Origin: Candidatus Staskawiczbacteria bacterium RIFCSPHIGHO2_02_FULL_42_22
GTDB taxonomy: Bacteria; Patescibacteriota; Minisyncoccia; Minisyncoccales; Staskawiczbacteraceae
Direction of reading: 5' to 3'
NCBI GenBank assembly: GCA_001820175.1
Contig: MHOT01000018.1
Location: 15,401-73,703 of the forward strand
Length of the DNA: 58,303 nt
Shown piece by piece: positions 44,788-53,430 of this stretch. The position numbers and the translations under genes are program-made. The notes beneath the pieces were generated by a model that did no database searches, was not told the DNA's origin, and saw only the letters and a list, made by a program, of their open reading frames with translations. Position 1 is the first letter of the stretch. Each line of letters starts with the position of its first letter.

Positions 44788-46290
44788 TTACTTTTCTAAA
44801 AACTTCCCCAAATCCAGGATCTGGTCAATTCGAATTTGTTCGACAAAATCCTGTGAGTGGCTGACTAATATTATCGCCCCTTCAAATTCATTGATGGCCT
44901 TGGCGATAATGGGGATGTGGCGGAAGTTAATGTGGTTAGTCGGTTCGTCTAAAATGAGTAGTCCGGGCCGCTCGAGCGATATGGCGGCAAATGCCACCAA
45001 ACCCTTTTGACCTTCAGAAAGTGAACCGATTGTGGCTTTTAGAATTTCGGCGTCTATCAAAAAGCCGGCGGCATGAGCCCGTAAATTTTGTTCGGTGCCT
45101 CGGTTTTCCATGGCTCTTTGCAGGACTTGATACACGGTGGCGTTAAAATCCAGGTTGCTAAAATCCTGCCGGTAGTAACTGATATGGGTGTCTTCCTTGA
45201 CGTGTTCGCCCTTGGCGTGTCCAGCCGCCCCTTTTGGGGCGAGCCTCGCCTCTTGGCGGGATGCCAGTTTTTCTAGTAAGGTGGTTTTACCAATGCCATT
45301 GGGGCCTTGTAGTAATAATCGTTCTTTTTTAGTAAGCCGAATATTTACTTTTTTATCAATGAATTTGTGGTTTTTAGCTATGGTAACCGAGTCCAAGACC
45401 AAAATATCTCCGCCAGAATTCTCTTGGCAGATAATCTGAAAATTCCTGATGGTCTTATCTTCCCTTCGAACTTCCACAATATCTTCTTCCAGGGCCGCAA
45501 TTTGCTTACGCATTTTACTGGACACATCCCGCAAGTGACCGCCTTTTTGGGCAAAGAAATTGGCCTGCTCTTTTCTATGGGAAATATCTTTTTCTAAACG
45601 CGCATTTTTCATACGTTCCCGTTCTAAACGGTTTTGAATTTCCTTAACTACCGTGAAATAATCACCCGTATATTGTTCTACTTTTTTGGTAAAAATATCC
45701 AAGTACAAAACGCCTTCCGTAAATGAATTCAAAAAGTCGGCATCGTGACTGATAACAATGCAGGTCTTTTGGTAGTCCTTAATAAACTGAGTCAAGTGGG
45801 CGATGCCGGCCTTGTCTAAATTATTAGTTGGTTCGTCTAATAACAATACGTCGGGGTTTTGAATTAACGCCGAGGCCAGCGATATTCGGGCCTGCTGTCC
45901 GCCCGATAAACTTTTGATAATTCTATCCAGTGGTACGCTTAAATTGGTAATTTCCAGCGTCTCTTTTATTTTAACATCAATATCATATACTTTTTTTGCA
46001 AAACACTTTTCAAAAAATTCTCGTACGGTAAGTTCCAATTCCGGGCGGGGGATAACCTGGCGGGCCGTGGCAATGGTGATATTTTGGGAAAGGTTTATGG
46101 CCCCCGATTCGGGCTGCGCGCCACTCATAATTAACTCAAAAATGGTGCTTTTACCGGCACCATTTTGCCCCATGAGGGTAATTTTTGATCCTCTACGCAC
46201 CGCAAAATTGGCCTCATCCAAAATGGGTTTGCCCGATTCCCATTGAAAGGAAACATTGTTGAATTTTATGATGGTTTCATTTGACGACAT
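44788..46290 (-). CDS. ABC-F family ATPase
   Basis: Two ABC cassettes (GQNGAGKST/LSGGQQ/LLDEPTN; GPNGIGKTT/LSEGQK/ILDEPTN); no TM. Confidence 0.93.
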   Translation of the reverse strand: MSSNETIIKFNNVSFQWESGKPILDEANFAVRRGSKITLMGQNGAGKSTIFELIMSGAQPESGAINLSQNITIATARQVIPRPELELTVREFFEKCFAKKVYDIDVKIKETLEITNLSVPLDRIIKSLSGGQQARISLASALIQNPDVLLLDEPTNNLDKAGIAHLTQFIKDYQKTCIVISHDADFLNSFTEGVLYLDIFTKKVEQYTGDYFTVVKEIQNRLERERMKNARLEKDISHRKEQANFFAQKGGHLRDVSSKMRKQIAALEEDIVEVRREDKTIRNFQIICQENSGGDILVLDSVTIAKNHKFIDKKVNIRLTKKERLLLQGPNGIGKTTLLEKLASRQEARLAPKGAAGHAKGEHVKEDTHISYYRQDFSNLDFNATVYQVLQRAMENRGTEQNLRAHAAGFLIDAEILKATIGSLSEGQKGLVAFAAISLERPGLLILDEPTNHINFRHIPIIAKAINEFEGAIILVSHSQDFVEQIRIDQILDLGKFLEK

Positions 46291-46369
46291 AATAAAAATA
46301 ATACCTTATTTTTTGAAAAATAGCCAGCCCTAATTTGGCGACGTCAGACGTCGCCAAAGCGTCGCCAAA

Positions 46370-46742
46370 GTAACCCCGCGCGTCCCGTCATTGCGAGGAA
46401 TGCGTATAGAACAAACATTATCACTTTGCACTAAAGTCGCCGGCGGTTTGGCAATATTGGGCGGATTGGAGCAAAAAATATGTTTGGCGTAGCCGTAGCT
46501 ACGGCAAACATATTTTTTGTGAAAACTGCCCAAGATTGGCAAAGCCGCCAAGACCTTGGAGTGCAAAGTGATAATGTTTGTTCTATAGATGACGAAGCAA
46601 TCTCTGGATGAAATGACGAGATTGCCGCGTCGCCCTTCGCTGTCCAGACGCGAGGCGCAATTTATCGCAACAAATTCGCCCCGTCTCTAGCTCAGGGCTC
46701 CTTGCAATGACGGTGGTGAAAAAGGAAGGTGTGAGGGGTTAC
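46370..46742. repeat. Composite: GTAACCCC shell containing a family D palindrome, itself containing a family C element and the 45-bp module
   Basis: See the nested-element finding. Confidence 0.85.
46405..46587. mobile_element. Family C element (TIR TATAGAACAAACATTATCACTTTGCACT), 183 bp
   Basis: 28-bp perfect TIR; longer inverted copy at 52932-53235. Confidence 0.9.
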
Positions 46743-46753
46743 TCGCCAAATAA

Positions 46754-46864
46754 TTGACTATTTGTAATTAATATGGTAAATTACTGATAGTTCTTTTACC
46801 CTACCTCATAGTTCAGTCATAACCAAAAGCCCTTTGCATTGCCGAGGATTTCTGGCTATGACTG
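46754..46864 (+). promoter_or_regulatory. Promoter, boxA-like motif and leader hairpin
   Basis: TTGACT-17-TAAATT (TG extension), GTTCTTTTAC at 46790-46799, hairpin at 46814-46864. Confidence 0.55.
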
Positions 46865-46908
46865 CTACTTTGGAGCAAGCACTCTCTTTACAGGAAAGGG
46901 ATGACGCC

Positions 46909-47520
46909 ATGACCAAGATCATGATCGCATCGCAACCGATGACCGACGGTCAGATGGAGAATCTGGTCGACAAGTTCCGCGCCGCGGTGCGCAGGCATCG
47001 TGCGGAGTTTTCGCTCGATGCCGTCCAACAGGTTCTTGGAATCGAGAACCTTGGCATGGAGTGCCTGGCTCCTTTCCGTGCACGCGTGGAGGCGATCAGC
47101 AACCTGATTGTCCGCCGCGTCACCGTCAACCGCACCTGCACTCCACAGGAGGCAATCGACGCCACCGGCCGCACGCAGTACACCGACCGCACGATCGTGG
47201 ACGCCATGCCCCGCGGCGAAGGCGAAGAGACGGAGGTCATCTTCTTCAACCTTGGCCGCTATGTCAGCGACGACAACCTCGACAAGGAGTACGAACTGTG
47301 CGGCCTCATACCCGCCGATCCGTACTCGCTCGCGGCCGTCAACGAAGCCGACCCGACCTTCGCGGACGATCACCCCAATGCCACTCACTGGAAAGATTCC
47401 AGTGGCAAGTGGTGTTACGCCGCTTTCGACCGCTTCGACGATGACGAGCGCGGCGTGTTCGTCAGCCGTAGCGGCGACGGTTGGCATGACGCCTGGTGGT
47501 TCGCCGGCCTTCGCAAGTAA
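46909..47520 (+). CDS. GC-rich hypothetical protein
   Basis: AGGAAAGGG SD before ATG 46909; strongly C/G-ending codons; terminator at ~47587-47628. Confidence 0.8.
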   Translation: MTKIMIASQPMTDGQMENLVDKFRAAVRRHRAEFSLDAVQQVLGIENLGMECLAPFRARVEAISNLIVRRVTVNRTCTPQEAIDATGRTQYTDRTIVDAMPRGEGEETEVIFFNLGRYVSDDNLDKEYELCGLIPADPYSLAAVNEADPTFADDHPNATHWKDSSGKWCYAAFDRFDDDERGVFVSRSGDGWHDAWWFAGLRK

Positions 47521-47801
47521 GTTCTTGGTGCTTAGAACCTTGGGTTGTTTGACCCTTGGGAACTTTGCACTTTGAATCGTCGTTTTAAACCCCGCATTTG
47601 CGTTTGCAAATGCGGGGGTATTTTTTTGTACTATTTTTTTAATGTAGTATAATAATACTAAATCCGAAATCCGAATAGGAACAAGTTCGGCTCCGGCCAC
47701 GAAATTCGAAACAATTCGCCAGCTGGCGAACGAATTTTCAAAATCCAAATTTTCAAAATATGTTTAGAATTTAGAGTTTAGGATTTAGGATTTCATACAT
47801 T

Positions 47802-48086
47802 ATGGACACTACCATTATTACCAATATTTTGTTTTCACTGCTCAGTATTTTTATAATACTTATTATTATTGTTTTTTTGATGGCAATAGTATATGCTATT
47901 AAAATTGCTAAGCGGCTCCAGGAAATTTTGTCCATTATTAAAGAAGAAACAGAAAAAATTACCCATGACGTTGATGCGGTTCGTGAAAGAATAAAAAACG
48001 GCGGCAGCCAGTTTGTTTCGTTTGTGTCGTACCTGTGGTCGTTTTTTAATAAAAGTAACAAAAAAAGTCGAAAAAACAATAAATAG
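47802..48086 (+). CDS. Hypothetical membrane protein (TM + coiled coil)
   Basis: Long hydrophobic N-terminus, then amphipathic helix. Confidence 0.7.
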   Translation: MDTTIITNILFSLLSIFIILIIIVFLMAIVYAIKIAKRLQEILSIIKEETEKITHDVDAVRERIKNGGSQFVSFVSYLWSFFNKSNKKSRKNNK

Positions 48087-52931: not shown

Positions 52932-53235
52932 TATAGAACAAACATTATCACTTCGCACTCCAATTCTTGACGGATTTGCCAATCTTGGGCAGTTTTCGCA
53001 AAAAATATGTTTGCCGTAGCTACGGCTACGCCAAACATATTTTTTGGAGACGGGGCGAATTTGTTGTGACAAATTACGCCTCGCGTCTTGACTCCAAGCC
53101 GCCCAATATTCGAGGATAGCGAAGGGAGTAAATATGCCGCAGTATATTTACTCCCAAGCGACGCAGAATATATGCTTATCATATATTGCCAAACCGCCGG
53201 CGACTTTAGTGCAAAGTGATAATGTTTGTTCTATA
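52932..53235. mobile_element. Family C long form (304 bp) with two inserted hairpin modules
   Basis: Inverted copy of 46405-46587 plus inserts at 53047-53091 and 53111-53187. Confidence 0.9.
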
Positions 53236-53264
53236 GATTCCGTGTCAATCTTTTGTAAAGTTTA

Positions 53265-53430
53265 ACGAGATTGCTTCGTCGCCCTTCGCTGTCCAGACAC
53301 GAGGCGTAATTTGTCGCAACAAATTTAACCGTCTCTGGCTCAGGGCTCTAAAGTCGCGAGATTTTTCTCGCCTTTCGGGCGGGAAAAATCTGGCGACTTT
53401 ACGTAATGACGGTGGGGCGCGAGGGGTTAC
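53265..53430. repeat. Family D right arm with two inserted modules and GGGGTTAC shell end
   Basis: Modules at 53292-53335 and 53349-53401. Confidence 0.8.

Follow-up and report, generated by a model that had tools for sequence, protein, structure and literature searches.

Mosaic repeat regions are known as BIMEs in E. coli and as NIMEs in Neisseria, and very small dispersed repeats (SDR, 21-27 nt) were reportedly described in Nostoc by Elhai et al. in 2008. The present study concerns an intergenic stack of repeats in the genome of Candidatus Staskawiczbacteria bacterium RIFCSPHIGHO2_02_FULL_42_22, an ultra-small groundwater bacterium of the candidate phyla radiation (CPR). The stack is a 373-bp composite in a 58,303-nucleotide window, i.e. 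the whole stretch of DNA that was analysed (contig C18, positions 15401-73703; positions given below without a contig label are those of the window). It is probably the result of insertion, in succession, by three sorts of mobile DNA that carry no genes: a 147-bp MITE (miniature inverted-repeat transposable element) called D, a 183-bp MITE called C, and a 45-nt hairpin module. The genome, here G000, comprises 821 kb in 30 contigs with ~41% GC and is 95% complete. As in BIMEs, NIMEs and SDRs, small repeat families combine in intergenic mosaics, with very short elements at fixed contexts inside repeats. Unlike those systems, the layers at this locus are separable by their insertion signatures, and the module has a defined entry bond (CTG^CGG) and empty paralogues.

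Three other groups of described elements are close to the parts of this composite. The superfamily of repetitive extragenic palindromes (REPs) tagged with CGTC includes Neisseria dRS3/NTS and Rickettsia RPE-4/6 (Di Nocera et al. 2013, PMC3733652); these REPs were concluded to have no dedicated transposase (PMC3733652), and REPs nested in longer palindromes are on record (PMC3733652, section 7). The CGTC motifs have since been renamed Ssn-related motifs (SRM) and tied to small GIY-YIG single-strand nucleases (Chenal et al. 2025, PMC11893778). REPs are also targets of insertion sequences (IS): IS1397 and ISKpn1 are found in REP loops, and ISPpu9, ISPpu10, ISPa11 and ISRm22 target REPs (Tobes & Pareja 2006, PMC1525189). 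The inverted repeats of IS66 begin with GTAAGCG and 8-bp repeats are generated (PMC11946415); ISDge4 from Deinococcus geothermalis, of the ISBst12 group, has the terminal inverted repeat (TIR) GTAACTGCTCAGCA, a single transposase of 449 aa and an 8-bp direct repeat (PMC12898284). The MITE surveys PMC11602168 and PMC10969869 make no mention of IS66-derived MITEs, of nesting or of CPR bacteria.

The D element as host of two inserts

The earlier note on this DNA, made from the letters alone, had described a three-level nest, in which an outer shell of repeats encloses a D palindrome whose left arm is split by C and whose right arm is split by the module, with a separate palindrome just upstream. 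The nesting is real, and the junctions and component families were recovered where they had been placed. The shell repeats are present at 46369-46377 and 46735-46743, the arms of the D palindrome at 46385-46399 and 46699-46713 (15 nt, 93% complementary), and the 28-nt perfect inverted repeat of C at 46405-46432 and 46560-46587; the module and the upstream palindrome were likewise found as quoted (Table 1). The levels are two rather than three, i.e. one host MITE and two separate inserts: the shell sequence, GTAACCCC(TCACACC), is the D family's own TIR. What had gone unnoticed was the flanking 8-bp repeat TCGCCAAA, the unity of shell and D palindrome as one element, and the position of both inserts at hairpin tips.

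As single-stranded DNA, the 383 nt from 46365 to 46747 fold into one branched hairpin of -121.1 kcal/mol, against -52.6 +/- 4.3 for shuffled sequences (z = -15.9), and its branches agree with the earlier description. All components recur in the 821-kb genome: C occurs at ~37 loci and the module at 22, TCATTGCGAG arms number 270 where ~1.4 exact matches are expected, and GTAACCCC is found 82 times against 16 expected. The composite as a whole has no second copy in the genome, and an Rfam scan of 45500-47500 at E <= 1 gave only chance mir-190 matches on the C hairpin. The public runs with matching sequence are groundwater and soil metagenomes. Contigs of independent public runs cross the D/C junctions without mismatch; hence a chimeric assembly does not explain the nesting.

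Together, the 'shell' GTAACCCC…GGGGTTAC and the D palindrome make up a single MITE of 147 bp, whose ends are of the IS66/ISBst12 type. Across the genome, 53 of the 82 copies of GTAACCCC are found, at fixed spacings, just to the outer side of a CGTCATTGCGAG arm in the correct orientation, and beyond them is unique AT-rich DNA. Where GTAAC…GTTAC ends could be paired, an exact 8-bp target-site duplication (TSD) is present in 8 of the 15 pairs; with a second end type included, the TSD is exact in 10 of 21 pairs, and 16 of 21 match at six or more of the eight positions. With its inserts removed, the restored 147-bp element aligns end to end with uninterrupted members of its family at 79% mean column identity. 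The family is gene-less and multi-copy, and its members measure 132-200 bp. The focus copy is decaying: its left TIR has degenerated, its D arm contains a G·T pair, and the pair at 46664 is broken.

Ends starting with GTAA together with an 8-bp duplication predicted a source in the IS66 family, and a search of the genome confirmed the prediction. An intact IS66-family IS lies at G000:C10:40470-41917, with a 449-aa DDE_Tnp_IS66 open reading frame (ORF; PF03050 at 1e-34), the TIR GTAACTGCTCACAAC / GTAACTGCTCACAACCCCGAG and the 8-bp TSD GCTCGGCG. The ends of D MITEs fall into two types. Those reading GTAACTGCTCAC (n=20) match the first 12 nt of the TIR of this IS exactly, and those of the form GTAACCCCTC[AG]C (n=51) are identical to it at 12 of 15 positions; in short form, the IS-type end is GTAACTGC and the other is GTAACCCC. 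MITEs with one end of each type exist, some of them with exact TSDs. The 449-aa transposase presumably moves D MITEs in trans. Outside the window, at G000:C10:40462-42133, the intact IS adjoins a 200-bp D MITE, the octamer GCTCGGCG being present three times; the left end of this MITE is of the IS type and its right end of the GTAACCCC type.

Overall, D resembles IS66/ISBst12 elements in its GTAA ends and 8-bp TSD, and the resident IS on C10 resembles ISDge4 in its 449-aa ORF and 8-bp TSD. D is unlike the ISs of this group in that it is gene-less, with a size of 141-200 bp, and that its interior is a doublet of CGTC-tagged REP-like units rather than a scrap of an IS; also, most D copies bear the variant end (GTAACCCC…) and not the end of the resident IS.

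Inside D, two units that each read CGTC-ATTGCGAGG-(inner stem)-CGAAGCAAT-CTC stand in inverted orientation to each other, and the whole element folds as a long hairpin. A pattern scan for (A/G)GATTGC…TCGCAATGA(CG) gave 217 such units in the genome. Their inner stems vary in sequence and keep their self-complementarity, and their tips are near-constant (CTGCGG, CTGTGG, TTGCGA). At the focus locus the left unit is broken at its tip, whereas in uninterrupted paralogues it reads GAGGAATCCGCAGATGACGAAGCAATCT (C18:92604, C18:11047, C23:28059); for the right unit, the nearest empty paralogue (C13:28521) is 4 edits off. Other CGTC-type hairpins in the style of dRS3/NTS (GTCATTCCCGCGCAAGCGGGAATC, GTCATCCCGGGCTTTTGACCCGGGATCC) are also found within GTAACCCC-ended shells throughout the genome.

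With the form CGTC-ATTGCGAG…GCAAT-CT(C), and with 217 units and 270 arms, the D units agree with CGTC-tagged REPs in tag, stem, tail and copy number, and they share with them the A/T-first stem (ATTGC…GCAAT), the inverted doublets and the mosaics. They differ from the described CGTC REPs in being longer (27-47 nt), in their constant CTGCGG-type tip, and in being borne in a TIR-bounded MITE with a TSD. Assignment to families CGTC-1 to CGTC-4 was tried and rejected: those families have a simple stem of 8-9 bp and a loop of 4-5 nt, whereas in the D units the outer stem has 5-9 bp, the internal loop is asymmetric, and a second, inner stem varies in sequence. D is also an inverted REP doublet that forms a hairpin, as in a REPIN; however, the REPIN/RAYT system was rejected, since the tag is CGTC and not GTAG and no RAYT (PF01797) is found in G000. 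A literature search for the D arm sequence returned only chance primer matches.

As a candidate for the nuclease tied to SRMs (Ssn, cd10448), a 91-aa GIY-YIG ORF was found at C10:27929-28135, and no D-type units flank it. The gene is bracketed by two other MITE-like palindromes (G000:C10:27700-28440); in the middle of the one downstream (TIR TAGACCTGTCCCTAAATAAG) lies a diverged 45-nt module.

The two inserts and the order of events

The C family counts ~37 copies of ~182 bp, with three TIR types around a common core. TA is present at both ends in 33 of 37 copies with no longer duplication, and the flanks are biased towards C-TA-G. The focus copy occupies the tip of the left REP-like unit; its filled site has the sequence GAGGAATGCG-TA[…]TA-GATGACG, as against GAGGAATCCG-CA-GATGACG in uninterrupted paralogues. 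C thus has the sequence features of a TA-flanked MITE of IS630/Tc1 style, where the TA could formally belong to the TIR and not to the target. It is like MITEs of the IS630/Tc1-mariner type, such as MITEEc1 (PMC11602168), in its TA ends, CTAG-like flank bias, long perfect TIRs, hairpin fold and size of ~180 bp. It is unlike an IS630 MITE derived from a resident IS in that its TIRs do not match those of the IS on C30, and in that one core is combined with three TIR types. That IS carries an intact IS630-family transposase, and its TIR TATAGCCTGTTAAAAACAAAATG occurs only at its own two ends. Among C-type TIR pairs 1-3 kb apart, no autonomous partner was found.

Further C copies are parts of larger arrangements. 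At G000:C27:17769-18178, a 214-bp unit made of a C element and 48 bp of flank is tandemly duplicated. Within the window, at 52932-53430 (C18:68332-68830), a 304-bp C element contains the 45-nt module and a further hairpin insert of ~80 bp; the adjoining D copy carries the module and an 'E' hairpin of ~48 bp after CATTGCG. At C18:82578-83092 there is a stack of four levels, whose TSD, GGACGCGC, is exact, and just past the window end (C18:~73704) there is an assembly gap (a run of N) within a D copy with an E-type hairpin.

The 45-nt module is found within other repeats in all of its 22 genome copies. Thirteen are in REP-like units, where 3 variable nt and a 42-nt core stand between CTG and (C/T/A)GG of the tip with no duplication; six share a single C-family site (GGAG^CAAAAA), and another palindrome contains one more. 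The 13 REP-hosted copies span at least six REP subfamilies, each with empty paralogues 0-4 edits off. Filled and empty paralogues differ by exactly 45 nt, and two pairs are identical save for the insert (C13:63348 and C5:2771; C28:11536 and C12:55244). The same 42-nt core is shared by 7 copies over 4 host subfamilies. At 46664 the focus copy alone has an A, where nearly all other copies have G, and one pair of the stem is thereby broken. Four congeners also have the module (G013, n=9; G020, n=7; G003, n=1; G012, n=1), again inside other repeats and including the CTG^CGG site. In all 38 copies the 5' neighbour is G, the only constant flank position (-1). The rule for the module is therefore one of fixed sites inside repeats, which means the hairpin tip for REP-like units only. 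A general rule of insertion at hairpin tips was rejected, as a metric of local palindrome centres was the same as for random positions (median 4 vs 3).

In lacking a target duplication and having hairpin ends, the module is similar to IS200/IS605-like elements. A miniature element of that type was rejected as its identity, since there is no fixed 5' target of 4-5 nt and no Y1_Tnp in G000. Y1 (IS200/RAYT-like) homologues of 210-300 aa occur in 16 of 25 relatives and are absent from G000, the most repeat-rich genome of the set. The best guess, which is also the weakest step of the proposed history, is that the module would be moved by single-strand, structure-guided cut-and-join at exposed hairpin loops. 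Like the REP-targeting ISs, C and the module are mobile DNA that enters extragenic palindromes, at times exactly in the loop. Unlike them, these invaders are non-autonomous (183 bp and 45 nt), and no REP-targeting enzyme of IS3 or IS110 type is present in G000.

The probable order of events is as follows. A 147-bp D MITE entered the octamer TCGCCAAA and duplicated it. The module most likely got into the right-unit tip of a D copy that was ancestral to this one, and was then carried to this locus by the MITE. C later entered a TA at the tip of the left unit. The earlier note had read an insertion order from the nesting; of this order, D before C is shown, the module was probably already inside D on arrival, and the order of C and module is not readable from the nesting. 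Paralogous D copies have the same left unit uninterrupted, and no other D copy of the focus subtype carries C. Together with the perfect 28-nt ends of C and its 100% identity over 134 nt to the copy at C19:40822-40955, this suggests that C is the youngest layer. The module is common to five other D copies of the focus subtype, and the right unit of the focus copy is nearer to module-bearing D copies than to empty ones; therefore, the module probably arrived inside D.

The earlier note had also proposed that elements land preferentially in other palindromes. This holds strongly for the module and weakly to moderately for C, and it has to be weighed against an account without any targeting, in which the few insertion-tolerant spots of a gene-dense genome already hold repeats and selection on neutral space leads to the pile-up. 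For the statistics on C, the C and module copies were excised in silico, coding DNA was annotated crudely, and the C insertion points were compared with random non-coding positions. Territory was taken as the distance to the nearest D arm, after a strict rule of 'inside paired D arms' was dropped because it under-counted interrupted D copies. Of the 37 C copies, six are no more than 20 nt and ten (27%) no more than 50 nt away from a D arm. By the non-coding length count that had been suggested, 11%, 14% or 17% is expected, according to the ORF cut-off (P = 0.006, 0.03, 0.08); this excess is small and depends on how non-coding is defined, and the remaining 27 copies are more than 50 nt from any D arm. 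Measured against the TA sites available in non-coding DNA, 6.5-9% of which are no more than 50 nt from a D arm, C copies are in 3-4 fold excess (P = 1e-4 to 1e-3). In addition, the nested C copies occupy differing positions in D (left tip, central loop, unit tail, and inside a further module), and therefore represent separate events. Permissive space alone is insufficient for a module that is nested in 22 of 22 cases and that, in six or more REP subfamilies, enters at exactly one phosphodiester bond. Targeting is thus clear and site-specific for the module, whereas the excess of C is modest and selection for safe sites could explain it; as an account of the whole, pile-up without targeting appears unlikely.

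The nesting of the module could also stem from co-amplification, if the module entered each host family once or a few times and the composites then multiplied, with empty sites arising through gene conversion or precise loss. In keeping with this, the module variants and the variable nucleotides go with the family of the host (tcc in D1, gcc in the GGC subfamily, tca/tta in C), six D1 copies have one composite, and the congener copies L118, L120 and L121 are one amplified composite family. However, at least six REP subfamilies, C and other MITE families carry the module, each of them with near-identical empty paralogues (0-4 edits), and the identical core in four host subfamilies argues against co-amplification as the sole cause. 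Even with it, at least 7-8 independent entries at the CTG^CGG bond are required. Co-amplification, while it has a real share of the probability, is the less likely account when set beside successive insertion. It is far more improbable that the 373-nt rod is a selected functional unit, such as a structured RNA or a DNA hairpin at divergent promoters, and not a selfish stack. The fold is extremely stable, and the rod sits between divergent genes, directly upstream of a conserved promoter segment of an ABC-F gene. Against such a function, each layer has copies of its own with other partners and its own signature (8-bp TSD, TA duplication, or none). Moreover, the composite is unique and without an Rfam match, congeners with the same gene pair do without it, and this copy is decaying.

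Several observations weigh against successive insertion as proposed here. The GTAACCCC end differs from the IS end at 3 of 15 positions, and recognition by the C10 transposase is assumed. The IS630-family IS on C30 was rejected as parent of C, its ends matching C only in TATAG, so that C is matched to no driver. For the module, neither Y1/RAYT (PF01797) nor IS110 transposases were found in the 95%-complete G000, so that no enzyme is tied to it; the proposed history does not account for its three variable left-end nucleotides, and many copies in congeners are at sites without a local palindrome. Finally, no orthologous empty site was found for D, C or the module, as the congeners have nothing of the ~1.29-kb block in which the composite lies. 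D is absent from the orthologous position at 80 loci of the genome collection (closest 77% aa identity) and in five congeners (71-85% aa). A search for empty and filled alleles in public runs gave no orthologous empty allele; the Logan contigs end within the repeats, and one record of the 'skip' type proved to be a different D copy. The case for mobility is therefore built on target duplications and on the comparison of paralogues. Family membership, element boundaries, target duplications, empty sites in paralogues and the occurrence of intact transposases of the IS66 and IS630 families are established here, and the pairing of enzymes with elements, the timing, and the module's enzyme and chemistry are inferred. 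With these points taken into account, successive insertion is still considered probable.

Setting of the composite and neighbouring genes

The composite sits in a divergent promoter region, flanked by the start of a minus-strand ABC-F gene and by a plus-strand orphan gene (Table 1). The nearest matches of the ABC-F protein are from metagenome-assembled genomes of Candidatus Staskawiczbacteria and Paceibacteria; against the NCBIfam model for ribosomal-protection-like ABC-F proteins it scores 304 bits, which is under the model cut-off.

Table 1. Positions of the composite, its parts and the neighbouring features in the window.
Feature	Position	Strand	Description
D MITE with two nested inserts	46370-46742	.	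373 bp as found; 147 bp with inserts removed
Left 8-bp TSD copy TCGCCAAA	46362-46369	.	8/8 match with 46743-46750
Right 8-bp TSD copy TCGCCAAA	46743-46750	.	8/8 match with 46362-46369
Left TIR of D MITE	46370-46384	+	GTAACCCCGCGCGTC, decayed form of GTAACCCCTCACACC; 'shell' of the earlier note
Right TIR of D MITE	46728-46742	-	GGTGTGAGGGGTTAC
Left CGTC-tagged REP-like unit	46386-46604	+	CGTCATTGCGAGGAATGCG / C insert / GATGACGAAGCAATCTC; broken at tip
C-family MITE	46405-46587	.	183 bp with TA at both ends; 28-nt perfect TIRs; central 22-bp hairpin 46472-46519
Central loop between the two REP-like units	46605-46617	.	From fold and family alignment
Right CGTC-tagged REP-like unit, inverted	46619-46712	-	AGATTGCCGCGTCGCCCTTCGCTG / 45-nt module / TAGCTCAGGGCTCCTTGCAATGACG
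45-nt hairpin module	46643-46687	+	3 variable nt TCC and 42-nt core AGACG…CGTCTC, at CTG^CGG tip; no target duplication
ABC-F family ATPase gene, 500 aa	44788-46290	-	Reads away from the repeat; Pfam ABC_tran 3e-45
Promoter-proximal spacer of ABC-F, ancestral, retained beside gene	46291-46333	-	Aligns with ABC-F upstream region of congeners G019, G013
Single-copy perfect palindrome TTTGGCGACGTC-A-GACGTCGCCAAA	46334-46358	.	12-nt perfect arms
Tandem 11-mer CGTCGCCAAAG x2	46349-46370	.	After the palindrome
Orphan gene, 203 aa, 56-62% GC	46909-47520	+	Without Pfam or NCBIfam match
Terminator-like hairpin CCCCGCATTTGC-GTT-TGCAAATGCGGGG and T run	47577-47625	+	Read from sequence; ends the lineage-specific block

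In congeners G019, G013 and G020, whose ABC-F proteins are 84-85% identical, an AT-rich spacer of ~275 bp leads from the ABC-F gene to a homologue of the ORF at 47802-48086. By synteny, G000 has an extra block of ~1.29 kb (46334-47625) without counterpart in these three genomes; it holds the single-copy palindrome, the D composite, the GC-rich orphan gene and the terminator hairpin, and is followed by the ancestral AT-rich spacer. The final ~45 bp 5' of the ABC-F gene are conserved in the congeners. The ancestral spacer (47650-47800 in the window; 1200-1450 in the congener loci L124 and L125) is a long, imperfect AT-rich hairpin made of short repeated words (aaatccgaaat…, ctaaactctaaattc…).

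No other copy of the upstream palindrome is present in the genome. Its right arm contains the octamer that the D MITE duplicated. There are three occurrences of TCGCCAAA, one in the arm of the palindrome, one in the tandem 11-mer CGTCGCCAAAG and one 3' of the MITE. The third copy, one beyond a simple target duplication, may be the footprint of an earlier insertion and excision.

Significance for repeat biology in CPR bacteria

Several parts of this picture have precedents, namely MITEs formed from the ends of resident ISs, REP doublets, REPs as targets, REPs in palindromes, and mosaic regions. What is new is that, in a CPR bacterium, a MITE of IS66/ISBst12 type has a CGTC-REP doublet as its cargo, and that a module of 45 nt has a single bond of a hairpin tip as its target. 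A tentative proposal, made up of two linked ideas, is that the module is a mobile 'hyperparasite' of selfish repeats and that IS66/ISBst12 ends are the vehicle by which CGTC-tagged REP doublets spread. The module may then be an ultra-small element that leaves no TSD, enters 3' of G at exposed loops and is moved by some enzyme acting on single-stranded DNA. Its sites may include CTG^CGG of REP/SRM-type hairpins as well as fixed sites of MITE families, in at least five species of one CPR genus.

Overall, the locus represents selfish DNA parasitising selfish DNA, and is a variant of known repeat biology. CPR/Patescibacteria genomes are usually called streamlined and poor in mobile DNA, and G000 departs from this view: its 0.82 Mb hold at least 217 REP-like units, ~37 TA-type MITEs, dozens of IS66-type MITEs and the 45-nt module, in stacks up to four deep. 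The composite serves as a worked example in which each layer is assignable by its insertion signature, and it gives the CGTC-tagged REP/SRM hairpins a link to a specific transposon as their vehicle, one for which an intact transposase gene is present. The module, if truly mobile, points to an unknown structure-guided activity of DNA insertion. Since nested repeats of this kind break metagenome assemblies and create spurious ORFs, a catalogue of them would improve the annotation of CPR genomes.

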